DNA of 63,363 nucleotides, the filler included, from Candidatus Woesearchaeota archaeon (GTDB taxonomy: Archaea; Nanobdellota; Nanobdellia; Woesearchaeales; B72-G16): assembly GCA_003650545.1 (NCBI GenBank). It is 3 parts of 3 records of this genome, joined end to end, with 100 filler letters (N's around TTAATTAATTAA, not from the genome) between each part and the next. Parts side by side here need not be neighbours in the genome. Positions count along the whole stretch, not along the records: positions 1 to 24,321 come from QMQO01000021.1; 2 more parts are not named here. One strand, 5' to 3'. Positions 87-48,816 of this stretch are shown here, one piece after another (the first letter of the stretch is position 1; every line of letters starts with the position of its first letter). Both the position numbers and the translations under genes were made by a program. The notes under the pieces are model-generated. The model was not told the DNA's origin and searched no databases. It saw only the letters and a list, made by a program, of their open reading frames with translations.

Positions 87-1781
87 GTGGTTAGGATTGC
101 CTATGTTTCTGTAGCACCATTCTGTAAGTCTGGGTATGGTAGGTGTACTGCTGAGCTTGTTTATAGACTTTTGAAGTGGTTTGAAGTTGATATTTTTGCT
201 TATCACGGTCTTCAATCTGGAGAGATAGATATTGTACTTTCTGGTTCTGAAGGTGATAGGGTAGTTAAGGTTATTGGTGGTGACGGTACTATAAACCACC
301 CGAAGCTACCCAAGAAAGCTCCAGAATATGACATAATCTTCTTTCACTACGATACATGGCTATTCTACACAGATAGGAGTAAGGATGTTGGTTTTACTGA
401 TTTTGTCAGGGGTTTACAAATTCATTGGCTAGTTGGTGATCAAATACCTGTACCACACCCATACAGGAAACTACTAAATTGTAGGTATGTGTACTGTGGT
501 GTTCCAATGACGAATTGGTTTAGAAACGTATTATTGAAATGCCCAGACATTCCAAAGGAAAAGGTTGGTCCTGTAATATATCACGGTGTAGACCCTAGGT
601 ATTGGTTTCCAGTATACTCACCAAAGCTTGAAGAGTTGGGTTTGCCAAAAGGTGAGTTTACGGTATTTACAATCGCTCCAAACGTTAGTATTAGAGAGAA
701 TATCCCAAATTGTATCGAGGGGTTTGCAATTTTCCTAAAGAAGTATAGGGTAGATGCATACTACATAATTAGAACGAATGTTGAGCCTGTACCTGGTGGT
801 TACTACCTAAAGGAGATTGTCAAGTCTATAGAAGAGATTTATGATGTAGATCTTTCAGACCGTATTGTGTTTATTACAGAGTTTGTTGATGATAGTGTTT
901 TAAGGGTTATCTACTCTCAAGTTGATGTTCTTTTAAATCCATTTACAGGAAGTTTTGAACTACCAATCCTAGAAGCAGCACTTTGTGATACACCAACCAT
1001 AGGTATTGACTTTGGTGGTGTAGCTGAGGTTCTTGGGTATGGTGAGAGGGGTTTGCTTGTTAAGGGATACCCACTTTGGGCCAACCTAACAAGTACAAAA
1101 ACCTACCTACCAGATCCAGAATCTATTGCTGAAGCACTCTATACATACTACGTAGATAAAAACCTAAGGAAAAAACATACAGCAAAATTAAGGAGTTGGA
1201 TTTTAAAGAATGCAACTTGGGATGTTGTTGCACAAAAGTTTAAGGAGTTGTTTGAGTGTGTCTATGAGGAAAAGATAAGCTACGGTAGAGCATACTACGT
1301 ATCGAGACACATAGACACTACAGAGTGGACCCACTTCAACTCTGTAAGAGGTAGGGTACTTGAGGTTGGTTGTGGTACAGGAGAGTTACTTTCATACTTA
1401 AGGGATAGGAATTGCTATGTTGTTGGAATTGACATTTCAAAGTATGCAGTTAAAAAGTGTAGGGAGTTTGATCACGATGTTGTTCTTGCTAGTGCTACAC
1501 ACATACCATTTAAAAACAACGCCTTTAACTATGTTGTAAGTCAACATACGCTAGAGCATGTTGGCAATTACTTTAAGGTTCTTGATGAGTGTTTGAGAGT
1601 AGCTAAAAAGCAAATACATGTACTACCAGGTCATAGGAGTACAGACCCTACACACAAGATAAATCACTTTACTGAAAAGGAAATCAATGAGATTGTGCTT
1701 AAGTACATGAACATGGGAGTAAAAGTTAAGGTTTACCCAGAGGGTTATCCTAGAGATTGGGTTTTAATAATTGAGAGATGA
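87..1781 (+). CDS. GT4 glycosyltransferase fused to C-terminal class I SAM methyltransferase
   Basis: SGYG, IYHGVD, SFELPILEAALC (GT-B); VLEVGCGTG, GIDIS, HTLEHV (MTase). Confidence 0.85.
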   Translation: MVRIAYVSVAPFCKSGYGRCTAELVYRLLKWFEVDIFAYHGLQSGEIDIVLSGSEGDRVVKVIGGDGTINHPKLPKKAPEYDIIFFHYDTWLFYTDRSKDVGFTDFVRGLQIHWLVGDQIPVPHPYRKLLNCRYVYCGVPMTNWFRNVLLKCPDIPKEKVGPVIYHGVDPRYWFPVYSPKLEELGLPKGEFTVFTIAPNVSIRENIPNCIEGFAIFLKKYRVDAYYIIRTNVEPVPGGYYLKEIVKSIEEIYDVDLSDRIVFITEFVDDSVLRVIYSQVDVLLNPFTGSFELPILEAALCDTPTIGIDFGGVAEVLGYGERGLLVKGYPLWANLTSTKTYLPDPESIAEALYTYYVDKNLRKKHTAKLRSWILKNATWDVVAQKFKELFECVYEEKISYGRAYYVSRHIDTTEWTHFNSVRGRVLEVGCGTGELLSYLRDRNCYVVGIDISKYAVKKCREFDHDVVLASATHIPFKNNAFNYVVSQHTLEHVGNYFKVLDECLRVAKKQIHVLPGHRSTDPTHKINHFTEKEINEIVLKYMNMGVKVKVYPEGYPRDWVLIIER

Positions 1782-2512
1782 TTGTCATGGATTTGAAAAA
1801 AGTTGAACATTCAATAAACCTAATTCGAGATTTCATAGAAAGTTACAATAGAGTAGCAGTTTGTTTTTCCGGAGGTAAGGATAGTTTAGTTCTAACATAC
1901 TTAACATTAAAAGCATTAAGTGAGGTAAAATCGAGTCCAAAGATTTGGTTTATAGTATGCGACCCAATACCAATTGAGGAAAACAGAGGTTTTTGCCAAT
2001 ACATTGTTGATAAATGGAATTTAAATGATTATGGTGAAATTATTTGGTATGAAGACTTAGTTAAAAAATACTCTAAAATTGATTTTGAAATTGCAAAAGA
2101 TAAGATAAGATGTTGTATGGAATTAAAGGTAAAACCATTGCGAAAATTCATTAGAGATGAAAATATTGAAGTTTTAATAACCGCAATAAGAGGTGATGAA
2201 CATCATGAAAGAGCTAAAGAAAGTGAAATATCGCCTAGGGAGGACCACATTAGGTTACACCCACTATTAAATTGGTCTCTTATCGATGTTTGGAGTTTTA
2301 TAAAGGAAAACAACCTACCCGTAAACCCACTGTACTTTAAAGGTTATTTAAGTCTCGGTTGTAAACCATGTACAAAACCTGTAACAAGCGGTTTCAAAAG
2401 TGTTGATGAGATAATAGAGTTTTTAAGGAGGGGCGGTGTTCATGAGCGTGCTGGTAGAGATATAGATAAGGAGCGTGTTATGGAAATACTAAGGTCGTTG
2501 GGGTACTTCTAA
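1778..2512 (+). CDS. PAPS reductase / sulfate adenylyltransferase subunit 2 family protein
   Basis: FSGGKDS PP-loop, RCCMELKVKPL, AIRGDE, HPLLNWS, GYLSLGCKPCT. Confidence 0.85.
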   Translation: MIVMDLKKVEHSINLIRDFIESYNRVAVCFSGGKDSLVLTYLTLKALSEVKSSPKIWFIVCDPIPIEENRGFCQYIVDKWNLNDYGEIIWYEDLVKKYSKIDFEIAKDKIRCCMELKVKPLRKFIRDENIEVLITAIRGDEHHERAKESEISPREDHIRLHPLLNWSLIDVWSFIKENNLPVNPLYFKGYLSLGCKPCTKPVTSGFKSVDEIIEFLRRGGVHERAGRDIDKERVMEILRSLGYF

Positions 2513-3270
2513 TGAAGGAACAACTCAAACTTTTAAGTAAGGACCTTGAACATTGTGATATAGTCATAATATTAGATGCGTGTAGGTGTGACTACTTTAG
2601 AAAGTACTCTAAAATAGATTGTGAGTGTGTCATATCACCAGCATCATATACCTTAGGTTGGTTGAAGGTTGTCTCACCTCTATTTCAAAGGTATGAGTTT
2701 GTAGCAATTTCGTCCCACCCATACATTAACTCTAAAGGTGATGTCCTTGGTCATGGGTATGATGCTAGACCGTACTTTAAATACATTGTCGATCTATGGA
2801 ATTTCTACTACGATAAGAGTATAGGTACTGTACATCCAGTACATGTTTACAATACGTTTAAGAAAATGTTTAATATGTTAAAAAAGTTCAAGATGTTGAT
2901 ATGGTTTTTACAGCCACACCTACCTCCAGCAACAAGAAGTTTATACCAATACTTCAAATGTGATTACAATGATATAGATATTGTAAAGTTGATTGAAAGG
3001 GGGGTGTTGAAGGATAGTGATTATGTTGAAATGTACATTGAAAACCTACAGCTTGTACTAGATTACACCTACAAAATCCTTGACTACTGTAGGGATAGAA
3101 AGGAGGTTGTAGGTAAGAGGGAAATTAATGTTTTAATAACTTCAGATCACGGTGAGTTTCTTGGTGAGGAAATTGAGCTTAATGGTAAGAAGGTGAAGGT
3201 ATTTTCACACCCTGGAAATATTTCACATCCAATACTTAGGACGGTACCCTACGCATTAGTTTCATTGTGA
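2512..3270 (+). CDS. alkaline phosphatase/sulfatase superfamily protein
   Basis: IILDACRCD, SPASYT, QPH, ITSDHGEFLGE, H...VP motifs. Confidence 0.75.
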   Translation: MKEQLKLLSKDLEHCDIVIILDACRCDYFRKYSKIDCECVISPASYTLGWLKVVSPLFQRYEFVAISSHPYINSKGDVLGHGYDARPYFKYIVDLWNFYYDKSIGTVHPVHVYNTFKKMFNMLKKFKMLIWFLQPHLPPATRSLYQYFKCDYNDIDIVKLIERGVLKDSDYVEMYIENLQLVLDYTYKILDYCRDRKEVVGKREINVLITSDHGEFLGEEIELNGKKVKVFSHPGNISHPILRTVPYALVSL

Positions 3271-3321
3271 TTGTTAGAAATTGTTTTATTTCTAAACACA
3301 ACCTCTATACTGTAGATAAGC

Positions 3322-3999
3322 ATGGTATTGAGCAATCCTGTTAAGGTTCATGTCAAGAGGGCGTATGAAGAAACAACATGTACTGTTACACAGTTAACAA
3401 AGTCTGCTAGACCGTGTGTTGAAACTTCTGTTTTCAAAATAACAATCTACAATGCAGATATCGACTATCTATACTGTGATATCTATGTTACAGATGTAAA
3501 GACGAATAAGAGGGTTTATGAAAAAACTGGCATTCCAATACCTGGACTTTCGACAGAGGATATTACAGTTAAGATCCACTTTACAGAGGATTTACTTGGA
3601 AAGAGAGAGTTGAAATTAGAAGTTTGGGGTGAAGTATATGTTTGGCCCACCTCAATGAGGTGGAAATTACATGAAGATACATATTATGTTGAGGTTAAGC
3701 CTAGCGACCTAAGTGTTACTGTCGAAAATGTAAGTGCGTGTATTAAATGTTCACAAGAGGTTGAGGTTAATGTTGGTCAAAAGATAGTTATTGACTTTAC
3801 AATCAAGCTTAGTGAGTCTGTACCATGTGATAGTTATGTCAATGCTAGATTGATTATAAACAATAGTGTTGTAAAGACAAAGAAGGTTGAAGTACCAGTA
3901 AACTCGAACATGGCAAAAGGTAGTTTTGAACATACGTTCACAAGTGTTGGTGATTATACAGTTTATGTTGATGTTGATGACTATACAATACCTAAATGA
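3322..3999 (+). CDS. two Ig-like domain protein with N-terminal SNPVxVHV strand
   Basis: beta-rich; starts MVLSNPVKVHV; ends GDYTVYVDVD-like F strand. Confidence 0.6.
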   Translation: MVLSNPVKVHVKRAYEETTCTVTQLTKSARPCVETSVFKITIYNADIDYLYCDIYVTDVKTNKRVYEKTGIPIPGLSTEDITVKIHFTEDLLGKRELKLEVWGEVYVWPTSMRWKLHEDTYYVEVKPSDLSVTVENVSACIKCSQEVEVNVGQKIVIDFTIKLSESVPCDSYVNARLIINNSVVKTKKVEVPVNSNMAKGSFEHTFTSVGDYTVYVDVDDYTIPK

Positions 4000-4349
4000 T
4001 GGTTATGACAGTCTTAATTTCAAATCCAGTATACGTACATGTTAGAGATGTAATCTCATACGCAGACCTTACTGTCGATGGTAGGAAGTACGTTGAAGTT
4101 TACATTAACACACCAGTTACGTTAGAGTTGAGGATTAGACTGTTAAAGTCATTACCATTCCCAATAAAGGCTGTGATACCGCTAGAAGTTAGGGGTCCCA
4201 AATCGTTTGTTATTGAAAATGCATTTACACTAAACTTCAATGTTGGTGAGGTTGAAAAGATGGGTAGGTTTACAATTTCATTCGATACTCCAGGAAAGTA
4301 CGTTTGTAGAGCATTGGTTGGTGAGGTCAATATTAGTGTAGTTGGTTAA
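3996..4349 (+). CDS. single Ig-like domain protein with N-terminal SNPVYVHV strand
   Basis: ISNPVYVHVRD; FDTPGKYVCRA Tyr-corner motif. Confidence 0.6.
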   Translation: MMVMTVLISNPVYVHVRDVISYADLTVDGRKYVEVYINTPVTLELRIRLLKSLPFPIKAVIPLEVRGPKSFVIENAFTLNFNVGEVEKMGRFTISFDTPGKYVCRALVGEVNISVVG

Positions 4350-4352
4350 GCA

Positions 4353-5105
4353 TTACTCAATCAATTCAGCGTATACGGTATAGAAGTTTTCTGGTATGTC
4401 AAATCTCAACTTGCCTTCAGCATACCCATGATAAATTGCTCCTTTTTCTATTGTTTTAAAGTGCTGTAGTGTTATTACAATGTTATCCTTGAGGGTGTGT
4501 GTTCCCTTCTCACCTATGGCGATTATCCTGAATTTCTTACTTACTGGCCTACAGGATTCTATTGGTTGTATCAAAGCTTCAACGTTTATCCTATACGGGA
4601 CTTCCTCGCCAATGTAGTACTCAAGTATGTCTGGTCTACCAACCATATACCTCTTCTTTAGAAAGTCAAGTTCTATACTTGTCATAGCGATTGTCTTGGG
4701 TGGGACAGTACATACTTCTAAGTAGCATTTATCTCTAATGAAGATTATCTCTTCTTTTGTATTCTCAATTTTTCTCACTTCTACACTCGCTATTACGTAG
4801 TGGCTATACCAATATGTTGGTATTTTCGTTTCTAATGTAAGAGTTTTTTGCTCCCTAGTTACCTCGACAATCCATTCATCATATAGGTAACCACCTTCAT
4901 CATGTAGTAAAACATGTACTACCTGGTGGTAAACTTCTTCAGGTACTAAATTCCAGTCTAGATAAACAATGACCTTGGCATTAACGTGGTATTCCTTTGG
5001 AACAACAGTCTTTCCTCTTCTGTCATTTACATAAAGTTCTACTTTTGATATTGGTGGGAAGTACCAAACAACCATCTTATCAATTATTTCACCTAGAACA
5101 AACAT
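4353..5105 (-). CDS. Ig-like beta-sandwich protein
   Basis: beta-rich; ends FDIPENFYTVYAELIE. Confidence 0.5.
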   Translation of the reverse strand: MFVLGEIIDKMVVWYFPPISKVELYVNDRRGKTVVPKEYHVNAKVIVYLDWNLVPEEVYHQVVHVLLHDEGGYLYDEWIVEVTREQKTLTLETKIPTYWYSHYVIASVEVRKIENTKEEIIFIRDKCYLEVCTVPPKTIAMTSIELDFLKKRYMVGRPDILEYYIGEEVPYRINVEALIQPIESCRPVSKKFRIIAIGEKGTHTLKDNIVITLQHFKTIEKGAIYHGYAEGKLRFDIPENFYTVYAELIE

Positions 5106-5142
5106 TAAATATTTTTCCTAAGAATTACTCTCTAGTGATAAA

Positions 5143-5304
5143 ATGGTTGTTAGGAGCAATCCAGTTTACGTTCACGTTAGGGAAAAAGTACCTGCTGTAG
5201 CACCTACTGTTAAACCGATAAAAATACCTAGTTCACTTGTGTTGTTCGGTCTATTCTTCATGTTCATACTATTCTTAGCTGCTATTGTTAAGAGGAGGAA
5301 GTAG
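5143..5304 (+). CDS. 53-aa membrane-anchored peptide with N-terminal SNPVYVHV strand (not in ORF track)
   Basis: MVVRSNPVYVHVREKVPAVAPTVKPIKIPSSLVLFGLFFMFILFLAAIVKRRK: shared motif, Pro linker, TM helix, basic tail. Confidence 0.75.
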   Translation: MVVRSNPVYVHVREKVPAVAPTVKPIKIPSSLVLFGLFFMFILFLAAIVKRRK

Positions 5305-5364
5305 TAATGTAGATGTCTTAAGTAAAGAATAAAATAAATTGTTTTTATTTTAACCGTAGAGAAC

Positions 5365-6045
5365 ATGTTTGACATACTAAGTTTTTCAATTGGTTTGGTA
5401 GCAGGCTTTATTGTCAGTGTAATACTATTAGCGACGTACTTGGTGCTATTCCCTGGAGTTAGAAGGTTGGCATCAGTATTGAAAAGGATTTTTGAAATGA
5501 TTTCAAACTACATTTCAAAGATCATCAATGTTTTAGATGCTTTAAAGAGAGTTGTACCTCAACAATATGTAAAGTTCATTGACTTTGCAATTAATGTTCT
5601 TAAGATATTAAAGGCAATTATTGAAAAAGCAAAGCAAATATGTGAGCTTATCGAGACTGGAGTATTGAAGGTTAAAGAAGCTATCAAAAGATTTGAAGCA
5701 TTGATAAGAGAAGGAGAAACAGCATATAAGACAATACAGGAAGGACCACCACCACTACCTGCTACTGTCTATGGAGATTTATTAGTGAATGACCAGCCGT
5801 ACAAAGCATCTAAGGATGAATTTAAGATTGAGGTTTTCGAGAATAAGGAAAACGTACAGGGTGTTGACATCTATACTGAGGCAGGTGTTTACGCAATAAC
5901 ATTCACATTGAAAGAACCTTTGGCCATAGGTGTAAAGCTATACTTTAGAGATTACATGTTCTACAATGGATATTTAAGACCTGGGGATTTGAAGAGAGTT
6001 GACATACACTATAGAACAGTTGAATCAAAATCATGTTGGATGTAA
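5365..6045 (+). CDS. membrane protein: N-terminal TM, helical stalk, C-terminal beta domain
   Basis: hydrophobic N-terminus; PPPLPATVYGDLLVN start of a beta domain. Confidence 0.55.
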   Translation: MFDILSFSIGLVAGFIVSVILLATYLVLFPGVRRLASVLKRIFEMISNYISKIINVLDALKRVVPQQYVKFIDFAINVLKILKAIIEKAKQICELIETGVLKVKEAIKRFEALIREGETAYKTIQEGPPPLPATVYGDLLVNDQPYKASKDEFKIEVFENKENVQGVDIYTEAGVYAITFTLKEPLAIGVKLYFRDYMFYNGYLRPGDLKRVDIHYRTVESKSCWM

Positions 6046-6097
6046 CGAGTAAAAACTAAAATTCTCTTTTTTACTTTTTACTTTTGGTGTTTAAAGT

Positions 6098-7144
6098 ATG
6101 GAACTTATAACTAAGAAGGAAAAGAAGGTGTTAGATGCATTAATTGTAAAGCATAGGAAAGATGGTGTTTTAGGCTATTCCAACATTAAACATGATGGTA
6201 AGATTAGAATTTATGTTAGTTCTGAAGATGTTACACCGCATGTACTTGCTTTCTGTACAGCAAAAGGTATTGACAATATAGAAATTGTTGTTATTGGTGA
6301 GGTTAAGGCTTTAGGTAGTTTTTTCCCAATAACATCAACAACACCAGAAAAGACAAAGAAAATTAGACCTTTAGTTATTGGCACAAGTGTCGGTCATAAA
6401 AACATAACGGCAGGCACTATCGGTCTTTTTGTAAAGGATGAATATGGTAACGAGTGTATTTTAAGTAATGCACATGTACTACATCCAAACCCACTATCAA
6501 GCTATTTACCAGTTGATAAAACCATTTGCCAACCTGGACCCTATGATTTCAATTTTGATATGTCAAAGGTTGATGAGTATAGGGTTGGTCAATTGTTAAA
6601 GCACATTCCATTGATTGGAATGTACAGTGGTTCTCAATGTAACCTAGCAATCTTTATTGAAAAGATGTTAAACGTAATAGCAAAGGCTTTTAGAAGGAGG
6701 ACTAGGTTTATTGCTGTGGCACAAGTTCCAAACTATGCCGATGCAGCAATAGCAAAGATTGACGAGGGTATAAAGTACATCCCAGATAAGACGTTTAGTT
6801 GTAAGATAAGTGCAAATACTCATAAGTGGATTGGATTGTTATTTGCAGGAAGTTCAAACGGAAAATATGCAGTAATGTGTAAGGCAAAATATATTATTGA
6901 GGGGTTGAGAATAACACCAATAGCCTTTGAGGTTCTTCACGATTTAAAAATTGGTATGATTGTTGAAAAAGATGGTAGAAGTTCGTGTTATACAAAAGGA
7001 AGGTTAATCGATGTTTCAGCTAGTATAACAGTATCCTACGGCATCGATAATGTCTGGTTTGATGATGTCTGTATTGTTGAAGCAATAGATAATGTAATGT
7101 GCCTACCTGGAGATAGTGGTAGCTCAATGTTTGTAAGAATTTAA
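6098..7144 (+). CDS. trypsin-like (S1, Nal1-like) serine protease
   Basis: AGTIG, LSNAHVL (His), ADAAIA (Asp), PGDSGS (Ser). Confidence 0.85.
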   Translation: MELITKKEKKVLDALIVKHRKDGVLGYSNIKHDGKIRIYVSSEDVTPHVLAFCTAKGIDNIEIVVIGEVKALGSFFPITSTTPEKTKKIRPLVIGTSVGHKNITAGTIGLFVKDEYGNECILSNAHVLHPNPLSSYLPVDKTICQPGPYDFNFDMSKVDEYRVGQLLKHIPLIGMYSGSQCNLAIFIEKMLNVIAKAFRRRTRFIAVAQVPNYADAAIAKIDEGIKYIPDKTFSCKISANTHKWIGLLFAGSSNGKYAVMCKAKYIIEGLRITPIAFEVLHDLKIGMIVEKDGRSSCYTKGRLIDVSASITVSYGIDNVWFDDVCIVEAIDNVMCLPGDSGSSMFVRI

Positions 7145-7566
7145 ATTATTTCGTGAGAAAATTGATTTTCAAATTTATTAGTAATCATGTTGTACGCTAC
7201 AGCTAATTTAATAGCAACAACCATTTCAGCAGATAGAAATTCATCGAGAATTTGAATAACAGTACTATCCTTTTCTAAATCCCTCCCACATTTTTTACTT
7301 TCCTGTATGAGGTAGTGTAAGAAATATGCCATCATATTAAATGTAAGACCAATCATTGAAATACCATTTATTTTAAATCCACATTTCTTTGCTAAGAGAC
7401 TGCCTAGTAATCCCATTGTCAATGCAATTTTTTCAACGTCAGATATTTTTTGAGAAGATACTTGTAAACACCCTTCTCTTATCAATTCCTCAGCAATTTT
7501 TACCAACTCCCCTTTCAAATCATCAATTATTTTTTGAACAACATCCTTACTATTCATTTTAATCAC
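7141..7566 (-). CDS. hypothetical protein
   Basis: 141-aa ORF filling gap. Confidence 0.5.
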   Translation of the reverse strand: MIKMNSKDVVQKIIDDLKGELVKIAEELIREGCLQVSSQKISDVEKIALTMGLLGSLLAKKCGFKINGISMIGLTFNMMAYFLHYLIQESKKCGRDLEKDSTVIQILDEFLSAEMVVAIKLAVAYNMITNKFENQFSHEII

Positions 7567-7614
7567 AACGTTGGTTGTTTGATGCTAGTTAATATTCCTA
7601 ATCGTTAAATTATC

Positions 7615-8742
7615 TCAGTACTTTCTTAACAGGATGTATGAATTCCATCCACACTTGATATATTCCTGTGCTGGTGGTGTAGGTATTTCCTCGGGGAGTT
7701 TTATAATTGTTAGATAGTCCTTCAATATCTCTGCTAGTTCACCCTCCTCTTCAGTTAGTTTTCTATATGTGATCTCGATTGGTTTTACCCAGTCTGGAGC
7801 AAGGTAGTTGATATACTCATTAACTATCTTTACTGCCATGTCAACTCTCTTATCTGCTATGGTTGTTTTTACTATATCTTCAATACCTTGTAATATGTTT
7901 GGTTTTTCAAATCTAATAAATCCGTAAATGATGTTTAATGGTCCTGGCTTTACAAGTCTATCTTCAATATCCAACATTTTGTATATAACCCTCTTAAGTG
8001 TGTAAACTAGTATTCTAAGCATCATCCTTCTAAAGTCTTTAAATTCCTCTTTTCCTGCTGATCTAAATCTTGCGGGACCAAACATCATTATTGGTCCTAC
8101 CCACTCTTTAAAGTACATTTCAAAGCCACGTTTGATATCTACATTTTCTTTAAAAACCTCAACTTCAAGTACATTCGGTTCTCTATTCATTGAGAATCTT
8201 AGTGAATTGTATAGGGTAGGTGCTTCAAGAAGTAGTATCTTAAACATTTCGAACATGTCTAAGTACAACGATGATTTTAACTCATCTCTAAAACACTCAT
8301 CAAATGCTTTCGATAATTTATCTTTCAACTCTATTTCATCTATTTCTCCACGAAGATACTCTCTTACAAACTCAATAAGCTCTGTGTAAGTACTTTCGGT
8401 AATGTTGAGAAAGATTATCCTCCCAAGTTTTAACTCAACAACGTCCTTTACATGATATAACTCATGAAATATTTCACCTTTTACGTAGTATATCAATCTC
8501 CTAGGGTCTTCTTTTAAATAATCCATCAACTCATCATATATTTCTACTTTAGTTGGGAATAAGATTATTGCTTTAGGTTTACATTCTGGATGAGAAATTA
8601 TGATTTTTGTTGAAGGTATGAACACATCTCTAGTTACTTTAACCTCAATTTCAACATCTTTTGGAACGCCTATTTCACGTCTATACCTTTCAACCCAATA
8701 CCTAATTTCCTCTTCAAGTCCTTCGTAACTAATGATAGGCAT
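7615..8742 (-). CDS. hypothetical protein with HExxH (possible zincin metallopeptidase)
   Basis: EIFHELYHVKD. Confidence 0.45.
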   Translation of the reverse strand: MPIISYEGLEEEIRYWVERYRREIGVPKDVEIEVKVTRDVFIPSTKIIISHPECKPKAIILFPTKVEIYDELMDYLKEDPRRLIYYVKGEIFHELYHVKDVVELKLGRIIFLNITESTYTELIEFVREYLRGEIDEIELKDKLSKAFDECFRDELKSSLYLDMFEMFKILLLEAPTLYNSLRFSMNREPNVLEVEVFKENVDIKRGFEMYFKEWVGPIMMFGPARFRSAGKEEFKDFRRMMLRILVYTLKRVIYKMLDIEDRLVKPGPLNIIYGFIRFEKPNILQGIEDIVKTTIADKRVDMAVKIVNEYINYLAPDWVKPIEITYRKLTEEEGELAEILKDYLTIIKLPEEIPTPPAQEYIKCGWNSYILLRKY

Positions 8743-8853
8743 GTGAGAAATGTTGTGTGTAAAATAAATAAAGATTTTTTACTCGTTATCTTATTATGTC
8801 GTCTACAATCTGTAGGAACTCTGGTTTCTGGGTGTCAAAATGTAGGTAAGATA

Positions 8854-10680
8854 CTATTTTGTAAAAAACCTGTATATTTCGTTGGTGTTGAATTGAATGT
8901 GGTTTTTAGGTATTTTCAACATTTTTCTTATCCTTTCATTTTTTGCTCTCTTGTCTAGCACAATGAATATTGCTTTATCTCTTTCACTTCTTATTGCTCT
9001 TCCAAATGCTTGTCTTGTCTTTACTATTGCAGGTACTATGAATGTAAAGTAAAATGCTCTTTCATCTCCATATCTAACCCTTAGGTAATCAAAGATTTTT
9101 TGTGTATAGTCGTTAGGTTCTGGGTATGGTAGTCCTGCAATTACTACACAACCAATCTTTGATTTTTTATTAACAACAATTTCAATTCCCTCCGAGATTT
9201 TACCTCCAGCAACTGCATGTATTACAACGTTATTGTTTTCTATAGCCTGTTTTATAACATCGTCAATCCTCAACCTCTCGGTTTCAACAATGTCAAATGT
9301 TTCCTTAGGTATTTTCTCGTAGTGTTTAAGAATGTTCTTCATAAATTCATAGCTTGGGTATACAACCAATACAACATACTTTTCAGGTATTGAACGTCTA
9401 ATTTCAACTATTTTCTGTGCGTATCTCCTATACATTGACTCACTCCTTAGTTCGTACTTCGACGTTAGTTCATCATCTATTACATACAGTCTGTTTTTTC
9501 TTGGGAATATGTTTGGGACCTCAATATACTCTAAATCTCTTTTTATACCGTAGACGTACTTTAGGAATGACTTTGGCGGTAGTGTTCCTGACATCATGAT
9601 TACACTATATGCCTTGTTTATCCTCTTCATTATGTATGTATAGTCGATGCATTTTATTGCTATACCGTTTTCAGAAACGAATAGGTCCATGTACTCAGTT
9701 TCGAGGTTTAAGACATTGTCTATAAAGTTCATTATGTGTTTAATGTATGTTCTAGCATTTACACCAAATATCTTCCTCTTTATTTTGTAAATTGTAGAGT
9801 GTAGGTTGTTTAGTGCCATTAAAAACATGTCACTGAAAATATCTGGGAATTCAGTCATGAATTGTTGTAGTCCTACATACTTCAATGACTTACCTTCATG
9901 TTTTAATATGAAGTTTAGTAGGTTGTTAAGTGTTGTCTGTACTATTTGCTTTTCAACTTCAAGACCTTGCCTTACATACCTATCAATTTCATGTAATGTC
10001 ATTCTGATTAATTCCTTTGTTAGAGAAAGCTCTATGTTTGCTGCAATTGCCTCTATGTTGTGAGCCTCATCTAGTATCAATATTGAACTACCAATGTCTA
10101 TATCGTAAACGTCTCTAACGAGGTTGTATATTCTTGGATTGAAAATGTATGGGTATGTTAAGACAACAACCTTGCAATCGCTTAGACTTAAGAGGCTGTT
10201 GTAGTATGGACAAACACCTTTTTTAACACACCTCATTATGTAATCGCTAATACACTTAAATTCCTTGAACTTTATCTTCCTTATATTGCATTGGCCAGAA
10301 TTTCTCAATTCGTTACAGGTTGTATAAAAATCAAGATTTTCCTCAATTTCGTTTTGTTGTAAGTTTCTAGTATTTATGTGATAACACATTTCCATTTTAT
10401 TTATAACAAAAGTGTATTGTGGTAGTGAATTAACCTTGTATAGTCTATACAATTCTCGAATTGGTGGATTTACTTCTGATTTAGTTCTTACCAGGTAAAG
10501 AATTTTCAGGTAATCCTTATCTAAAGAATGTAGTAGTGCTGAATATAGTGCGACAATTGTTTTTCCAAATCCTGTAGGTGCTGATAATGCTACAACTTTG
10601 TTATCTTCAATTGCTTTTAGAATTTTAGCTATAGTTTGTTTTTGATATTTTCTAAACTCATAAGGGAATTGAAATTTCAC
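8854..10680 (-). CDS. XPD/Rad3/DinG-family Fe-S DNA helicase
   Basis: APTGFGKT, four Cys ending GVCPYY, ILDEAHN, MSGTL, SEGI, QAFGRAIR. Confidence 0.9.
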   Translation of the reverse strand: MKFQFPYEFRKYQKQTIAKILKAIEDNKVVALSAPTGFGKTIVALYSALLHSLDKDYLKILYLVRTKSEVNPPIRELYRLYKVNSLPQYTFVINKMEMCYHINTRNLQQNEIEENLDFYTTCNELRNSGQCNIRKIKFKEFKCISDYIMRCVKKGVCPYYNSLLSLSDCKVVVLTYPYIFNPRIYNLVRDVYDIDIGSSILILDEAHNIEAIAANIELSLTKELIRMTLHEIDRYVRQGLEVEKQIVQTTLNNLLNFILKHEGKSLKYVGLQQFMTEFPDIFSDMFLMALNNLHSTIYKIKRKIFGVNARTYIKHIMNFIDNVLNLETEYMDLFVSENGIAIKCIDYTYIMKRINKAYSVIMMSGTLPPKSFLKYVYGIKRDLEYIEVPNIFPRKNRLYVIDDELTSKYELRSESMYRRYAQKIVEIRRSIPEKYVVLVVYPSYEFMKNILKHYEKIPKETFDIVETERLRIDDVIKQAIENNNVVIHAVAGGKISEGIEIVVNKKSKIGCVVIAGLPYPEPNDYTQKIFDYLRVRYGDERAFYFTFIVPAIVKTRQAFGRAIRSERDKAIFIVLDKRAKNERIRKMLKIPKNHIQFNTNEIYRFFTK

Positions 10681-11940: not shown

Positions 11941-12185
11941 TAAAAATCTTTGATGTAGTTTTAACTTTAGAACCAAGGAAATTAAATGTGGGTAAGAAGA
12001 GGGTTAAAGTTTCTGAAAGGGTTAGGTATTGGCGAGTTTTAATTCCATTTGATTACGGTATTATAACTCAGGAGATTATAGTTAGATTTAATGTTGATAG
12101 AAATGAATTTTGTATTGACTACTCAATCTTAAATACATACGATGATAAAAAGGATTTTGTAATTAGGTTTGAGCTTCTTGTTTAG
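11937..12185 (+). CDS. hypothetical protein
   Basis: 82-aa ORF. Confidence 0.45.
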   Translation: MIKIFDVVLTLEPRKLNVGKKRVKVSERVRYWRVLIPFDYGIITQEIIVRFNVDRNEFCIDYSILNTYDDKKDFVIRFELLV

Positions 12186-12188
12186 TGT

Positions 12189-13238
12189 TTACCAAATTAC
12201 AAATATTGTGTAGTCCCTATCTTTTTCAAGTGTTGTATTTAGTTCAACGATTTTTTCAGTCTCAACTTCATTTTCCTTAAATTCAATGTCTATTGGTTGC
12301 CAATACACAAAGAATTGTTCTTCAAGTTTTGTTGAGTAGTCTGTGTGTATACCTTCAAATACCTTTGCATGTACCTGGTAGGTAACTGGTCTGTTGAGTT
12401 TAATTGATTGTTTTGCCTTTACCTTAATCTTAGGTTTTTCTAAGTGTGTTATCGTACCTTCAACAACCTGTTTTGTATCGATAACTAGATAGCTTTCTAA
12501 AGCAATTAACTTTGGTTTTACAACTGTAACATATACTGGGTTTGACTTTATGTTACCGTATTGAGCATATATTTCATACCTACCCTCTAGTAATAGCTTG
12601 CAATCTCTTAAGAATGCTTCTCCACAATCGCTACCACTTGGTATTTCAACTGTTACCTCCCAACCTCTAAATGTATATCCTGTTGGACTTACAACATAAA
12701 TGTCTACAGTATACCTTCTACCTTCAATTGTTGGACCAGTTAATTTTGCAATTACCTTTAGATCGAAAGTCTCAATGTACTCTGGTCTATCGATAACAAC
12801 AACTGTTTTTTCCTGTGCTGCATCTACTTTCAATTCAAGACTTTGTAGTATAGGTACTTCTGTTGGTAGTATCTCAAGTGTTAGTGTTTTTTCAGCCGTG
12901 CCGTAGTAATCAACATAGCAAACAACTCTTACCTCGTGTACTCCAGGACCAACAATGTCGTGTGGTTTTGAAATTGTTATATAAATTGGAGAGCCAGTAT
13001 ACCTACCAATTACTCTACACCAATTTGAAAAGTATCCAACATACTTTCTATTTACAACTAACTTATCATTAATGTATATTGAGATGTAGGCGTTTGCTCT
13101 AGATATACCTGCTTGTTCTGGGTATGGGTAGACCCAAATTTCAACTTCGACTCTAACATCTTCATTTTTATAGATCTTTATGTGTTCCCCCCTTCTTTCA
13201 GCACACTCAAGTACTGCAATTAACTTGTCAATCCTCAA
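12189..13238 (-). CDS. multi Ig-like domain protein
   Basis: internal EGRYEIYAQYGNIKSNPVYVTV (F+G strands); ends DRDYTIFVIW. Confidence 0.6.
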   Translation of the reverse strand: MRIDKLIAVLECAERRGEHIKIYKNEDVRVEVEIWVYPYPEQAGISRANAYISIYINDKLVVNRKYVGYFSNWCRVIGRYTGSPIYITISKPHDIVGPGVHEVRVVCYVDYYGTAEKTLTLEILPTEVPILQSLELKVDAAQEKTVVVIDRPEYIETFDLKVIAKLTGPTIEGRRYTVDIYVVSPTGYTFRGWEVTVEIPSGSDCGEAFLRDCKLLLEGRYEIYAQYGNIKSNPVYVTVVKPKLIALESYLVIDTKQVVEGTITHLEKPKIKVKAKQSIKLNRPVTYQVHAKVFEGIHTDYSTKLEEQFFVYWQPIDIEFKENEVETEKIVELNTTLEKDRDYTIFVIW

Positions 13239-14529: not shown

Positions 14530-15321
14530 TCAATAGTTTTTAAGTAGGATGTATGTTAAACCTTCTTTTTTATGACTTGTATTTAACGTGAACTTTACAT
14601 CAATTCTCTTAAAACCACGTTTTTCTAGTTCGAGCAATGGTTTATCTTGTAAACTTGCTTTAACCAAGATTTTTGCTCTTGGATTTTCTAAATACCTGGC
14701 TAGTTTATGTAGGTTCACATTTTCTACCCTATAGTAGTGCTTACCTGTATGTGGTGGATCAATGTAAATTAAGACATCATCATTGTTAATGTACTTTTCG
14801 AGAATTTCCTTGTAATCACAATTATAGATTTCAACATTTTGAAGTAACTGATGGTATTTAAAGAGGTATTTATATATTGATTTGTACCTATCAGGAAAAT
14901 CAACCCATCTTAGCATTGGCCCAGATCTCCAGCAATGACATGCATGGTAGTAAACTATCGTCCAAATACCTTTCTTAACAATATCTTTTACAATTCCTTT
15001 ATCTAGTGCATACCTTATTTTTTGAAGCATCTTCTTTACTTTAATCCTCTCATCCTTTTCAATAAACCTTGAAATGCTATTGAGGATTTTTTGAATGGTC
15101 CAAATTTGTTCTGGGTAGTATTTTACAACATAGAATGCTGCATAAATTAAATCATCAAGGTCATTCCAAATTATTTTATTTGCCAACCTATTTTCTGCAA
15201 CATACAATGTTGCTGTACCTGCACCACCGAAAAGCTCAATAAAGATGTTTGATTTAACCAGGTAGTTTTTCAAAACCTTGATGAACTGACCATCACCACC
15301 AATGTATGGGAATAAACCCAT
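14530..15321 (-). CDS. Dam-like (D12 class) DNA adenine methyltransferase
   Basis: FPYIGG, ELFGGAG, WNDLD, YIDPPH. Confidence 0.8.
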   Translation of the reverse strand: MGLFPYIGGDGQFIKVLKNYLVKSNIFIELFGGAGTATLYVAENRLANKIIWNDLDDLIYAAFYVVKYYPEQIWTIQKILNSISRFIEKDERIKVKKMLQKIRYALDKGIVKDIVKKGIWTIVYYHACHCWRSGPMLRWVDFPDRYKSIYKYLFKYHQLLQNVEIYNCDYKEILEKYINNDDVLIYIDPPHTGKHYYRVENVNLHKLARYLENPRAKILVKASLQDKPLLELEKRGFKRIDVKFTLNTSHKKEGLTYILLKNY

Positions 15322-15397: not shown

Positions 15398-16162
15398 TTA
15401 ACCAGTAGATACTTCTTCCTTCATATAACCACAATAGTGGCACCTCCAAATCTTTTTCAACGGCGTAGAATATGGCTCTAGTTCCATAGTGTGAAAGCAT
15501 CGGGGACATTCATTTTCTTTTAATTTGATAACCCCATGTTTAACAAGAATTTTTCTTATCATGTATAGTGAAAGTCCTGTTATCTCTGAAATCCTCCTAA
15601 GTGGTAGTCCCATCATGTATAGTTTAACCACAGTTTCTTTTACATTATCTGCAATGTCTGTATAGAGTTTGAACCCTCGTTTCCTCATACTATCCTTTAT
15701 CTTCTCTCTAACATCTTCTCTTCGCATTACAGTCCTCGTTCTCTCCCTAATCAATTGTAACTCCATTGATGATACAAAGGAAAGTACTGATAACAGGAAA
15801 TGATACATGATTGGGTTTTGTGTCGCAAGATCGAATAAGTATGCTTCTCTAATTGAGTACACCATTATGTTCTTTTCGAAAAGTAGCCTTAGTGTATTAA
15901 AGACTTCATTTACAGACAATCTAATCAATCTATCTAAAGCATAGACGACTACTATACCACCCACATCTTTAAGCTGATTGTATAATTTTGAAAATGATGG
16001 TCTTTCTAGAAGTGGTGTATCGCCCGAAACATCTTTATCAACAAAAATTTCCTTTAACTCCCATCCCTTGTTATTGCAAAAATCTTTTATAATATTGATT
16101 TGCTCCTCAATACTGAGAGTTTGCTCTCCTGTTGATACTCTAACATAACCGACAATTTGCAT
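15398..16162 (-). CDS. serine recombinase (resolvase) with HTH and C-terminal Zn ribbon
   Basis: GYVRVST, DVSG, LDRL, IRERT; CPRC..CHYC. Confidence 0.85.
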   Translation of the reverse strand: MQIVGYVRVSTGEQTLSIEEQINIIKDFCNNKGWELKEIFVDKDVSGDTPLLERPSFSKLYNQLKDVGGIVVVYALDRLIRLSVNEVFNTLRLLFEKNIMVYSIREAYLFDLATQNPIMYHFLLSVLSFVSSMELQLIRERTRTVMRREDVREKIKDSMRKRGFKLYTDIADNVKETVVKLYMMGLPLRRISEITGLSLYMIRKILVKHGVIKLKENECPRCFHTMELEPYSTPLKKIWRCHYCGYMKEEVSTG

Positions 16163-16383: not shown

Positions 16384-17214
16384 ATGGTTTTGCTAAGACA
16401 TAACTACTACAGCGACCTAAAGTTTAAGCTATTTATCCAGGAACTGGGTAGTCACATTCTATATGATACCAATGGATTATGTTTAAAGGCAATTAAGATG
16501 TTTGCTAGAGAGGTTTTTATTGACAATGGTGTTTTTCACCTAATCAAAACTAGAAAGTGCCTGGATGTTAAAGAGCTTGTAAAGTATGGTCATAAAAACC
16601 TAAAGAGAGCAATAAGCTACCTACCATCGAAAGATTATGAAAACATCTACATTGTAATTCCTGACTATCCATATTCTGCTGAAGTAAATAAGAAGGCGTA
16701 TGATGTTTTTATGAAAGAATACGGTCTTTACTATAGGGGGATTGGTTGTAAGTTTGTATATGTCTTACATGGATATTGGAGTGCTGTAATAGATGGTGTT
16801 AATGCAGATTTAATAGCAATACCATTCAATACAATAACGACAATACCTGTTAGGGAATTGGAATTTAAGAAGTGTTGGAAGTTAGATGCACTAACGTTGA
16901 AGTATGTTGTTACTAAGACGGTTGAGTATGCAAAGGATTTTGGTTATAATCAATTTCACCTACTGGGTACTACAGCAAAGACATTGCAAAAACTTTTTGG
17001 GCCAGTAAAATCAAAGATTGAGCTTATTGATGGAACTACGATTTCGGATGATTTCTTTAAGTACATTGTTAGTTTTGATACATCATCATATCATTACAAT
17101 CAGGATAGTAAAAGTAGTGGTTACTATTTAATTCAAAGACACGATTTTAATACAGTTAAGGAATTTTTTATGAAGTGGATCAAAAACCAACCATTTACAA
17201 TAATTGAATGGTAA
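16384..17214 (+). CDS. tRNA-guanine transglycosylase-like (DpdA-like) protein
   Basis: FIDNGVF, PDYP, YVLHG, HLLGT, SFDTSSY follow TGT motif order; start chosen by match to paralog MVILQH. Confidence 0.65.
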   Translation: MVLLRHNYYSDLKFKLFIQELGSHILYDTNGLCLKAIKMFAREVFIDNGVFHLIKTRKCLDVKELVKYGHKNLKRAISYLPSKDYENIYIVIPDYPYSAEVNKKAYDVFMKEYGLYYRGIGCKFVYVLHGYWSAVIDGVNADLIAIPFNTITTIPVRELEFKKCWKLDALTLKYVVTKTVEYAKDFGYNQFHLLGTTAKTLQKLFGPVKSKIELIDGTTISDDFFKYIVSFDTSSYHYNQDSKSSGYYLIQRHDFNTVKEFFMKWIKNQPFTIIEW

Positions 17215-18071
17215 TTCTTATGGCTAGGACCATTTACGATTTAATTAATAAGGACCATATTGTTGTAGTTAATTTTTCAGGTGGTAAGGATAGCACCTGT
17301 ACTTTATTGAAAGTTCTTGAAATGAAAATTCCTATTCATAAAATTGTTTATATGAAAGTTGTAGGTAATACATATCCAAAGATAGAAGATTATCTAAAAG
17401 GTATTTTGAAAATCATTGATAAGTACTATCCAGGAACACTAAAGCTCTTCGAGATTATTGAATGTAAAACAAAATGTAGAATGCATAATTGTTTTGAAGA
17501 TTTTTGGGAGTATGCACTAAGATATGCAGGCTTTCCTGTTCCACACGTTGGTCTTTGGTGTTTAACACATTTTAAGCTAGAGGGATATCATAGATGGATT
17601 AAGGAAAAGCTAAAGGTTGAATATCACAAGGTAATAAGTGTTGTTGGGATAAAGAAGGGTGATAGTCATTGGAGAAAAAGATGGTTATCTGAACATGGTG
17701 AGTTAGTACCTCCAAACACAACAGATGTTAGAATAACAAAGACTTGGAAGTGGTTTCCAATTATGAGTATGACTAATGAAGAGCTTTGGTCCTACCTTAA
17801 AGAAAATTACCCAGAAGTATATGATTACTTATGGAGTGAAAATTATGGAAAGAGAATTTCTTTAAGTCAATGCTTACTTTGTCCATACAGAAGTAAGGGT
17901 GAGGTTCAGGCACTAGCCAGGTTAGGATTTAGAGGTTGGATGCTTGAAAAGATAGATATGCTGCTTCAAAATGAGAAGGGGTATAGACTTTCAAAACAAA
18001 TCCTACTTAGAATAAAAAGATGGATTTTAGAGACAAGTCATGAAATAACAAAGTGGATTGAATTTACCTAA
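17208..18071 (+). CDS. PAPS reductase-family PP-loop ATPase
   Basis: NFSGGKDS, WCLTHFK, VGIKKGDS, CLLCPY. Confidence 0.8.
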   Translation: MVILMARTIYDLINKDHIVVVNFSGGKDSTCTLLKVLEMKIPIHKIVYMKVVGNTYPKIEDYLKGILKIIDKYYPGTLKLFEIIECKTKCRMHNCFEDFWEYALRYAGFPVPHVGLWCLTHFKLEGYHRWIKEKLKVEYHKVISVVGIKKGDSHWRKRWLSEHGELVPPNTTDVRITKTWKWFPIMSMTNEELWSYLKENYPEVYDYLWSENYGKRISLSQCLLCPYRSKGEVQALARLGFRGWMLEKIDMLLQNEKGYRLSKQILLRIKRWILETSHEITKWIEFT

Positions 18072-20752: not shown

Positions 20753-20928
20753 TCCTCCCTCAATTTTTGTATTGTCTTTAACTCCATTTCATTTCCTTTA
20801 ACTTCATAAATCCTATGACATTTTCTACAATAAAAGTAGATCTTTCCTGATAGTGCATCCATTAGAACTTCCATATATGCAGCACAAAATGGGCAGTTTC
20901 TTGAGTATTTAAACTTCTGACTTCTCAT
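20749..20928 (-). CDS. 59-aa Zn-ribbon protein (not in ORF track)
   Basis: MRSQKFKYSRNCPFC...FYCRKC; ATGA overlap with upstream PAPS-reductase gene. Confidence 0.55.
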   Translation of the reverse strand: MRSQKFKYSRNCPFCAAYMEVLMDALSGKIYFYCRKCHRIYEVKGNEMELKTIQKLRED

Positions 20929-45680: not shown

Positions 45681-46253
45681 ATATAAAACCTCCTTTATTT
45701 ATTTTACCCTGGCCGAACCCGGGTTCAGCACACCCCCTGACATGCCGTCAGACGCACAGAAATGCCCCTAGAATCCATTTTCTCATGCGGGGGTATACCT
45801 ATATATGGGTTCGATCAGTATGGGTTACGGTGTACTAAAAGGTACACCAGACTTATTTTAATTACGACAACGAAAATTGAAGGAAACAGTTTATGAAGAC
45901 TAAAAGTGTAACGTCACATCACTCACCAAATTTCGCATCAGACGCACAGAAATGGGTCTAGAATCCATTTTGTGTAATTTTTACCCATATAAAAAGGATA
46001 TGTCGAAAGTTCGACAGCAGATACATGCATACGATGCATGCATATATTGAACACTTTCGGAGTGATCACCCCCCTGGCCCCCGGAGGGGGGTCTTAGCAC
46101 CCCAAAATGTTCCCTTCTCTCCCCTTCTTCTCCCTTCCTTCTTCCCTTCTCTTATATATCTCATCCTATTAACTATCCCTTATTATCCCCTCTTATCCTT
46201 CATATTAATCGTGCATCATTGCCTTCGATATATATATATAGAGTGTTTTCTTC

Positions 46254-48731: not shown

Positions 48732-48816
48732 GCAAGCACCACTCGGCGCTTCCCAGCACAGCTCCCATGTACTTCCACACCGATCTTGGGTTCCAGAGAG
48801 TTAGATCAGAGTCTTT

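Follow-up and report, generated by a model that had tools for sequence, protein, structure and literature searches.

A 63,363-nucleotide stretch of DNA from a Candidatus Woesearchaeota archaeon (NCBI GenBank assembly GCA_003650545.1; positions 1 to 24,321 from record QMQO01000021.1), referred to here as the window, contains five open reading frames (ORFs) that may encode the separate pieces of a rod built from immunoglobulin (Ig)-like domains. The ORFs are named by their lowest window coordinate, and the domain limits and strand names used for them were set by eye, with no tool output behind them. ORF 3322 (3322..3999, plus strand, 225 aa; start context GATAAGCATGGT) begins with a putative donor strand, continues through a complete Ig-like domain (residues ~14-126) and closes with a C-terminal Ig-like domain (residues 127-225) that ends in GDYTVYVDV plus 7 residues. 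ORF 3996 (3996..4349, plus strand, 117 aa), whose start overlaps the stop of ORF 3322 by 4 nt (ATGA), carries a donor strand followed by one Ig-like domain with its own last strand (GKYVCRALVGEVNISVVG). On the minus strand, ORF 4353 (4353..5105, 250 aa) has two Ig-like domains, the second of which (residues ~136-250) ends in NFYTVYAELIE directly before the stop, and has no donor motif. Translation most likely begins at the 11th codon (window position 5075), giving a protein of probably 240 aa: this is where the one known relative starts, and ORF 5143 has a matching start context. ORF 12189 (12189..13238, minus strand, 349 aa) has three Ig-like domains; domain 2 contains in cis the segment GRYEIYAQY-GNIK-SNPVYVTVVKP (12578-12522), and domain 3 (residues ~243-349) ends in RDYTIFVIW and a stop.

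The remaining gene, ORF 5143 (5143..5304, plus strand, 53 aa), consists of the donor motif, the Pro-rich segment EKVPAVAPTVKPIKIPS, a hydrophobic segment at residues 31-49 (5233-5289; Kyte-Doolittle (KD) hydropathy 2.88), the basic tail KRRK (5290-5301) and a stop. This is the composition given for it by an earlier interpretation made by a model from this DNA alone, here called the sequence-only reading. Inspection by eye shows a TATA-like, A/T-rich box (5101-5117) and a stretch of oligo-T (5340-5352). A KD scan gives ORF 5143 the features of a tail-anchored protein, with no signal peptide, a single hydrophobic segment located in the last ~30 residues and 4 residues after that segment. No NCBIfam match was obtained at E values up to 10, no N-terminal signal was seen, and the features of archaeosortase/PGF-CTERM substrates were absent; identification of the C-terminus as a sorting signal was dropped, as no sorting-signal model matched. 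Neither a hydrophobic N-terminal segment nor a signal peptide was found in ORFs 3322, 3996, 4353 and 12189 by a crude KD scan and inspection of the N-termini by eye.

A six-frame scan of the whole window for the pattern SNP[VIL].[VIL].[VIL] gave four occurrences. The motif opens three ORFs, as the sequence-only reading had stated: SNPVKVHV at 3331-3354 (plus strand; residues 4-11 of ORF 3322-3999, preceded by MVL), SNPVYVHV at 4020-4043 (plus strand; residues 9-16 of ORF 3996-4349, preceded by MMVMTVLI) and SNPVYVHV at 5155-5178 (plus strand; residues 5-12 of ORF 5143-5304, preceded by MVVR). In-frame stops lie 7, 10 and 13 codons before the NPV of these three copies (7 in ORF 3322), so that no upstream extension is possible and the motif is necessarily at the extreme N-terminus. 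The fourth copy, SNPVYVTV (12545-12522, minus strand), is internal to ORF 12189-13238. Across 200 dinucleotide shuffles of bases 1-45000, the motif occurred 0.2 times on average and at most twice, and the looser pattern [ST]NP[VIL].[VIL].[VIL] was found once in 1.18 Mb from 80 unrelated loci (stop-to-stop frames >60 codons). The codons of the motif vary synonymously (Ser AGC/TCA, Pro CCT/CCA, Val GTT/GTA/GTC, His CAT/CAC), and between the copies in ORFs 3996 and 5143 all 6 base differences (of 24 bases) are silent, indicating that the peptide and not the DNA is conserved and that selection acts on the SNPVxVxV peptide. The alternating positions are Val in 12 of 12 cases over the four copies, with K/Y/Y/Y and H/H/H/T at the positions in between, the signature of a strand that buries one of its faces. 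The N-termini of ORFs 3996 and 5143 align with an E value of 3.7e-4, and some 13-22 N-terminal residues are common to three otherwise unrelated proteins.

In ORF 12189, the internal copy of the motif follows its partner strand, GRYEIYAQY (core 12578-12564, minus strand), after the 4 residues GNIK, in agreement with the sequence-only reading. The pattern Y[TE][VIL][YFW][VAI], which describes this preceding strand, had 5 six-frame matches; shuffled sequence had 1.16 on average and at most 5. One of the five sits in a 27-codon stop-to-stop frame and was dismissed as noise; the other four all fall in Ig-like ORFs. Besides the cis copy, these are GDYTVYVDV (core YTVYV, 3955-3969, plus strand), 14 codons before the stop of ORF 3322; NFYTVYAEL (core 4382-4368, minus strand), 9 codons before the stop of ORF 4353; and RDYTIFVIW (core 12212-12198, minus strand), 7 codons before the stop of ORF 12189. 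These three ORFs thus do stop just past the partner strand, as had been proposed. If the partner strand and the donor motif are named F and G after the last two strands of an Ig-like domain, the window holds one F-G hairpin in cis, three F strands without a follower and three G strands without a predecessor. This split pattern of three orphan N-terminal strands, three F-ending domains and one cis junction is real and far beyond chance, and the observation is stronger than the sequence-only reading had made it because the numbers of donors and acceptors match. Other domains of the set keep, by eye, their own last strand (YYVEVKP in ORF 3322, YLEVCTVPP in ORF 4353, TLTLEILP in ORF 12189 and EVNISVVG in ORF 3996), indicating that only the C-terminal domains are truncated.

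None of the five ORFs had a family match in Pfam, PHROG, NCBIfam or PADLOC, and their assignment to an Ig/CARDB-like class is supported by leads from predicted structures. The ESM Atlas models of ORFs 3322 and 12189 each have a pLDDT of 0.80. The structural neighbours of the ORF 12189 model include CARDB and Big_13 multi-Ig clusters; ORF 3322 matches a cluster with CARDB in 40% of its members (feature score 0.90, 179 shared features) and reaches TM 0.48-0.58 to models of tandem CARDB/DUF11/DUF7507 clusters. This part of the sequence-only reading, an Ig fold, was thus upheld by the Atlas, while its "Tyr-corner" and "last strand" are by-eye readings to which no tool result corresponds. The best Pfam scores of residues 127-225 of ORF 3322 were below gathering thresholds, at 11.5 bits for CARDB (PF07705; cut-off 22.7; E 0.36) and 14.4 bits for PKD (PF00801; cut-off 23.5; E 0.038). 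The sub-threshold alignments of this C-terminal domain (PKD 48-67 of 80, PKD_4 49-70 of 85, CARDB 37-85 of 101; E 0.04-0.36) end 13-16 profile positions early, which is consistent with a missing last strand and is not significant. A phmmer search of domain 2 of ORF 12189 against the PDB gave a chance match only (E 0.38).

Relatives are few. ORF 3322 has one (P0001, 92% identity), with no changes within the first 45 or the last 24 residues. ORF 4353 has one among 1.84 billion representatives (P0123, 87% identity), which starts at ORF residue 11 and is identical over the last 15 residues. No relative of ORF 12189 was found besides itself. In these single relatives the termini appear to be the most conserved parts of the proteins, which we count in favor of the donor-strand reading set out next.

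The reading that best accommodates these observations, and in which we place about even confidence, is that of a chaperone-free, heteromeric Ig rod held together by donor-strand complementation across a split F|G hairpin. Sequence logic and one weak co-fold, described below, argue for such a split rod with a probability that we likewise put near the midpoint. The five ORFs would be pieces of a modular Ig/CARDB-like rod in which the chain breaks one strand upstream of the domain boundaries. The C-terminal domains of ORFs 3322, 4353 and 12189 would stop on the F strand xYT[VI][YF][VA], and a second subunit would provide the missing G strand, SNPV[YK]VHV, in trans from its N-terminus, with no chaperone or usher. 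ORF 12189, with three domains, and ORF 4353, with two, would be acceptor-only distal tips; the two-domain ORF 3322 would be an adaptor with both donor and acceptor; and ORF 3996 would be a donor-only cap with a complete domain. ORF 5143, in which a Pro-rich stalk links the donor strand to a membrane segment at the C-terminus, would act as a tail-anchor-like peg that fixes the rod to the membrane.

The spacing of the donor strands bears on this arrangement. In seven-stranded Ig-like domains the N- and C-termini lie at opposite poles, with the G strand heading toward the next domain. The donor strand is separated from its own first domain by about 5 residues in ORFs 3322 and 3996, while in ORF 5143 the linker and the membrane segment follow it. 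With so short a spacing, a donor strand should not be able to reach the C-terminal domain of its own chain in an extended array, and insertion in trans would continue the rod as a covalent tandem array would. The donors are perhaps interchangeable, as their buried residues are identical. A long homopolymeric shaft would be possible only via ORF 3322, and a polymeric fibre with a repeating shaft, as in the fibre or spike of the sequence-only reading, is not supported; the gene inventory fits a short, defined hetero-oligomer at least equally well. Given that the Ig subunits have no signal peptide, assembly is most simply placed in the cytoplasm, where it might take place on the cytoplasmic face of the membrane, or else on a particle or a vesicle that the mobile element produces. 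The rod may serve in adhesion or receptor binding. A bolder version, which we consider doubtful, has plug-and-socket rods inside the cell, in which a universal SNPVxVHV strand joins interchangeable tips (ORFs 12189 and 4353) to the adaptor 3322, the cap 3996 or the peg 5143 with no chaperone, usher, sortase or secretion. An archaeal mobile element would in this way make a virion, vesicle or envelope bearing spikes that are tethered to the membrane and combinatorial in make-up. It would be the first donor-strand system to be both heteromeric and assembled in the cytoplasm, and the first to have a dedicated anchor of strand plus transmembrane segment.

Co-folding with ESMFold2 was carried out for one of the nine possible donor-acceptor pairs, residues 127-225 of ORF 3322 with ORF 3996, using a 2-row alignment of our own and three controls. 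This pair was judged the likeliest beforehand, ORF 3996 being the translationally coupled neighbor through the ATGA overlap. The three scores were 0.45, 0.47 and 0.63 (median 0.47), compared to 0.00 for the best control; the runs agreed in at least 65% of contacts, and the partner ORF 3996 had a pLDDT of 81-83. Of 157 solved complexes 116 pass the mark used, as do 2 of 215 mismatched pairs, a calibration that holds only roughly with such an alignment, and scores of 0.60 or below include only 18 of the 157 solved complexes, but both of the passing mismatches. In the same co-fold the acceptor domain had a pLDDT of 73-75 with ORF 3996 versus 54-58 with unrelated partners, an incidental result that would fit completion of the domain. 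The co-fold is taken as weak support for the predicted pairing of ORFs 3322 and 3996. The donor-strand complementation proposed by the sequence-only reading therefore stands as far as the split pattern, which is beyond chance, and this one co-fold carry it, and falls short in that neither an open groove nor binding of the anchor appears in any model.

Several points weigh against a donor-strand rod. The open groove that AlphaFold monomers were expected to display was not seen: the AF2 model of ORF 3322 (2-row alignment) had a pLDDT of 49.9 with residues 1-46 below 50, and that of ORF 12189 (single sequence) had a pLDDT of 45.9 with domain 2 below 50. In the low-confidence ORF 3322 model, strands lie at 144-218 and only a one-residue bridge follows residue 218. 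At these confidence levels the monomers are uninformative and decide nothing on the groove or on how the N-terminal strand is placed. A Foldseek search of the same ORF 3322 model against the PDB gave generic two-sandwich matches only (arrestin, VPS26 and FN3 pairs; TMq <=0.33), which are meaningless at that confidence and were set aside.

The co-fold has its own weaknesses in this respect. Its output gives no contacts, so that strand insertion, like the groove, is seen in no model; a pass in ESMFold2 is more often wrong than right unless the pair was likely beforehand; halves of split folds may pass by likeness to solved structures, here Ig domains; and 7 of 44 blind neighbor pairs passed the same mark. 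From the sequences, the 7 residues (DDYTIPK) beyond the F strand of ORF 3322 might give that domain a short last strand. Comparison of the acceptor domains by hhalign, with one another and with domain 2 of ORF 12189, gave no significant similarity (probabilities 0.1-0.4), and with at most one relative each, ORFs 3322, 4353 and 12189 offer no covariation. Six-stranded sandwiches can also be stable alone. The topology of the peg presents a further difficulty. By the positive-inside rule, the basic KRRK would be cytoplasmic and the donor strand of ORF 5143 outside the cell, yet the Ig subunits have no export signal. Tail-anchored insertion of ORF 5143 would instead place the strand inside, with its partners.

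Other explanations of the shared N-termini were considered against the same observations. The shared M-V-x-SNPVxVHV-[KR] might be a docking, targeting or processing tag for a different partner. This could be a hub in a capsid or vesicle, the protein of the membrane encoded at 5365 or the S1 protease (through cleavage or packaging), in which case beta-augmentation could still occur, though not into the C-terminal Ig domains. Such a tag would account for the ~13-22 residues held in common by three unrelated proteins (E 3.7e-4 for ORF 3996 vs ORF 5143), the protease gene lies 0.8 kb downstream, and the surfaces that touch in the co-fold are unseen. We regard it as unlikely, given that it leaves unexplained both the three F-strand endings and the same peptide in cis after an F strand in ORF 12189, and that no hub protein was identified. 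It is also improbable, in our judgement, that there is no strand exchange at all, with complete C-terminal domains, N-terminal strands that serve as edge strands of their own first domains, N-termini that are alike through duplicated 5′ gene ends, and an ORF 5143 that is either an unrelated small membrane protein or not expressed. A duplication would fit the similar DNA start contexts of ORFs 3322, 4353 and 5143 (GATAA[AG](C)ATGGT), the 7-residue tail after the F strand of ORF 3322 would fit a complete domain, and the AF2 monomers neither favor nor exclude an open groove. However, in the 53-aa protein the strand would find no domain in the same chain to join, the codons have diverged synonymously while the peptide was kept, the 3+3+1 tally of F and G strands would have to be coincidence, and the co-fold score of 0.47 against controls of 0.00 would be unaccounted for.

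The ORFs could, in principle, be decayed fragments of one or two formerly continuous giant genes for Ig-repeat surface proteins, since the pieces read as a tandem Ig array followed by a stalk rich in Pro, a transmembrane segment and a basic tail, the combination by which archaeal surface proteins are usually anchored at the C-terminus, and since they lie on both strands. Decay would not be expected to leave all three breaks at the same F|G junction, an ATG for each piece, TATA-like boxes at ORFs 3322 and 5143, no internal stops, and relatives (P0001 and P0123) that keep the same ends at 87-92% identity; with no canonical slippery site by eye at the 3322/3996 overlap either, this explanation is highly improbable. 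A programmed frameshift that would fuse ORFs 3322 and 3996 was rejected, as no slippery heptamer was seen by eye and P0001 ends at the same place. Finally, the 24-nt stretch might be a shufflon- or invertase-like recombination site at which the serine recombinase encoded at 15398-16162 swaps gene heads or tails. A DNA-invertase-like recombinase is indeed present (phrog_125, E 2.8e-32), and ORF 4353 is inverted relative to its neighbors and, if flipped, would end directly before ORF 5143. This is scarcely credible in view of the four copies, which differ at many synonymous positions and have no conserved crossover core, the lack of inverted repeats flanking 4353-5105 (best pair 12 nt) and the presence in each ORF of its own start codon before the motif.

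The donor-strand principle is already known, archaea included. The present set would work like the known systems, but by helper genes, signal peptides and sequence family it does not belong to the chaperone-usher pili, threads, bundling pili, cannulae or sortase-type systems. The statement of the sequence-only reading that it knew of no description was too broad, as the available passages of the literature already describe archaeal chaperone-free donor-strand filaments, the donor-only cap Saci_0405 and the nucleator or anchor TapA. In the threads of Sulfolobus acidocaldarius, as described in the passages available of PMC9715654, the tail at the N-terminus of Saci_0406 subunit n completes subunit n-1, and the adjacent, co-transcribed Saci_0405 is a putative cap with a donor strand and no acceptor site that is not predicted to be Sec-secreted. 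The likeness lies in an N-terminal strand that completes a neighbor's beta-sheet domain with no chaperone or usher known from that source, and in ORF 3996, which like Saci_0405 would have a donor strand and no acceptor site (PMC9715654). Threads differ in being, by the same account, homopolymers of a Sec-secreted, glycosylated subunit with isopeptide bonds, whereas the set described here consists of several multi-domain proteins with no signal peptides and a separate membrane peg. No sequence relationship to the thread subunits was found in family scans of the island ORFs and a PDB search with domain 2 of ORF 12189, which included no direct comparison of subunits.

In Bacillus subtilis, according to the passages available of PMC9674648, the N-terminus of TapA mimics the TasA donor strand, and the proposed role of TapA is to contribute the first strand and serve as the fibre's anchor. 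ORF 5143 would be conceptually similar in providing a first donor strand and an anchor; in contrast, that source presents TasA as a secreted jelly-roll and TapA as a large secreted protein, while ORF 5143 is a 53-residue strand plus transmembrane segment (PMC9674648). No TasA-like family was found among the 54 ORFs scanned. By analogy, the precedents of Saci_0405 for the cap and TapA for the first donor strand may be counted in favor of a donor-strand rod.

Chaperone-usher and type V pili, in the part of 10.1101/2024.12.30.630787 that describes them, are built from Ig-like subunits that lack the last strand and are completed by the N-terminal extension of the next subunit, and their adaptor, tip and terminator subunits differ in having donor, acceptor or both, as would the five proteins here. 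The motif bookkeeping fits this hallmark of a missing G strand completed by an N-terminal extension, with one weak co-fold (0.47 vs 0.00, no contacts) and low-confidence monomer models beside it. Such pili depend on a chaperone in the periplasm and an usher in the outer membrane, or on lipoprotein export and proteolysis, and have single-domain secreted subunits, at least as far as that source goes; none of these features is present here, and Pfam scans of 54 ORFs (87-45680) and 25 ORFs (46963-63361) found no PapD-like chaperone or usher family. Among archaea, the passages available describe calcium-primed, chaperone-free donor-strand polymerization of the cannulae CanA/CanX (10.1101/2024.12.30.630787) and donor-strand filaments in bundling pili and in Tat-dependent "tafi" fimbriae (PMC12337348, PMC11821415), indicating that the principle works in archaea without helpers at high temperature. 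In those passages, cannulae, bundling pili and tafi are Sec- or Tat-secreted and homopolymeric or made of few subunit types, and no membrane peg is described, whereas the five ORFs here would be heteromeric and have no export signals. Neither a secreted subunit nor a sequence or family link to known filament subunits was found for them; ORF 3322 does carry both donor and acceptor elements, as one major filament subunit would. From the N-terminal sequences, the absence of signal peptides appears to set the island set apart from the published donor-strand filaments.

The nearest fold class to ORFs 3322 and 12189 is that of the tandem CARDB/PKD-type Ig arrays of archaeal surface proteins, which differ in that ordinary arrays are single polypeptides with a signal peptide, whereas here they are split, have no signal and have no Pfam match above threshold. 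In engineered split CnaB domains of the SpyTag/SpyCatcher type, a separate last strand rebuilds the domain and is locked by an isopeptide bond. The present case is similar in that the last Ig-like strand on a separate peptide would join two proteins, and differs in that SpyTag is man-made and isopeptide-locked. In the open-access literature searched, no heteromeric multi-domain donor-strand system without export signals, and no strand-plus-transmembrane anchor, was found.

The start regions of the genes have further features. A 19-nt inverted repeat (5064-5082/5136-5154, 53 nt between the arms) covers the start contexts of the divergent genes 4353 and 5143, which have the near-identical sequence TGATAA[A/G]ATGGTTGTT in common (encoding MVVW... 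and MVVR..., respectively). The start context within 5064-5154 could be a common initiation or regulatory element. Each of the acceptor-only genes, 4353 and 12189, faces a convergent plus-strand gene that is small and beta-rich, and the two stops are only 3 nt apart. This holds for 3996/4353 (window 4347-4355) and for 11937-12185/12189 (window 12183-12191), and the 82-aa product of ORF 11937 has no SNPV motif.

Bases 1 to ~25,000, where all five genes lie, look like a mobile or defence-type island, and the low-GC part of the window is archaeal (thermosome, FtsZ, Spt5, L11, DtdA). The genes of the island include a glycosyltransferase-methyltransferase fusion, three PAPS-reductase/DndC/BrxP-like genes, a D12 methylase, a serine recombinase, RadC, a DinG-type helicase and an S1 protease. 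Downstream of ORF 5143, a 226-aa protein (5365..6045, plus strand) is hydrophobic near its N-terminus (residues 11-29), then helical, and rich in beta structure toward the C-terminus, with no family match. It is followed by the S1 (trypsin-like, GDSGS) protease (6098..7144, plus strand; phrog_20754, E 9.5e-23), which could process N-terminal leaders. The protease has 551 relatives, some with PF13365, PF25608 or PF25819, and the closest (35-41% identity) are from archaeal metagenome bins. Among 50,697 phage and virus records, its only match was ORF 25-326, a putative protease, of Aeropyrum coil-shaped virus (ACV; 25.6% identity, E 1e-17). Nothing beyond the protease was found in common between the island and ACV, and a relationship between the two was dropped because the protease alone is shared. 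No related module was found near relatives of the protease at 80 loci (6-row protease alignment; all <=35% identity, mostly bacterial), where there was one chance match to the motif.

The sequence-only reading had assigned the rod to an archaeal virus-like element, which is not established. A PHROG search of 38 ORFs recognized only the glycosyltransferase, methyltransferases, PAPS reductases, protease, helicase, recombinase and a RadC-like DNA repair protein, with no capsid, portal or packaging gene, and the only viral relative of the protease is in ACV. In addition, tblastn of ORFs 3322, 4353 and 12189 against the 50,697 phage and virus records, and blastn of 2600-10500 against phages and plasmids, gave no match. 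Capsid proteins of archaeal viruses are often unrecognizable, so their absence is weak evidence, and a virus-like nature of the island is possible but unproven.

Other genes of the island were recorded alongside these. Just upstream of ORF 3322, the ORFs at 87-3270 form a tight same-strand block (glycosyltransferase-methyltransferase, PAPS reductase and ORF 2512) that might modify the Ig proteins. ORF 2512-3270 (plus strand) contains ...ITSDHGE..., reminiscent by eye of the alkaline-phosphatase/sulfatase superfamily, and ORF 7615-8742 (minus strand) contains, also by eye, a HELYH (HExxH) motif; neither had a significant family match. A 608-aa XPD/DinG-family helicase (8854-10680, minus strand) matches PADLOC typeIV_DinG (CAS-IV-A associated) over its full length (E 1e-81) and NCBIfam rad3 at 173.6 bits, below the 246.95-bit cut-off, and no other Cas-like protein was recognized nearby. 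The PAPS-reductase-like genes are three paralogs (1778-2512, 17208-18071 and 20925-21794; phrog_424; PADLOC DndC/BrxP/SspD-like), with the D12 methylase (14530-15321) and the serine recombinase (15398-16162) on the same island. This combination suggests a function in DNA modification or in defence/anti-defence.

The part of the window at 45700-63363 is of different character, with a GC content of 0.40-0.52 compared to 0.29-0.38 elsewhere and small minus-strand genes, among them those for a bacterial-type single-stranded DNA-binding protein (47099-47515; PF00436, E 3.9e-36) and a YpsA/SLOG protein (49633-50121). It also encodes, further along, a CcrM-like N6/N4 methylase (55651-56454) and a B12-dependent ribonucleotide reductase (59446-61476), and contains no Rfam family and no tRNA. 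Region 50000-50299, where the YpsA-like gene starts, has long perfect hairpins, and its predicted folding greatly exceeds that of shuffled sequence on either strand (z -4.0, -4.2). The part at 45700-63363 as a whole looks phage-like and could be an integrated element or a chimeric join beside archaeal housekeeping genes.

So far, donor-strand complementation has been described in secreted pili and in a small number of filaments from archaea and Gram-positive bacteria. If the five ORFs do form a split Ig rod, it would also operate between different multi-domain proteins, with neither export signals nor helpers and with a minimal strand-based membrane anchor. This would widen the known range of the mechanism, and engineered split-domain connectors would have a thermostable equivalent in nature. 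A further outcome would be a search rule, namely domains that end on the F strand together with N-terminal orphan G strands, for the orphan Ig-like genes of archaeal mobile elements and viruses.

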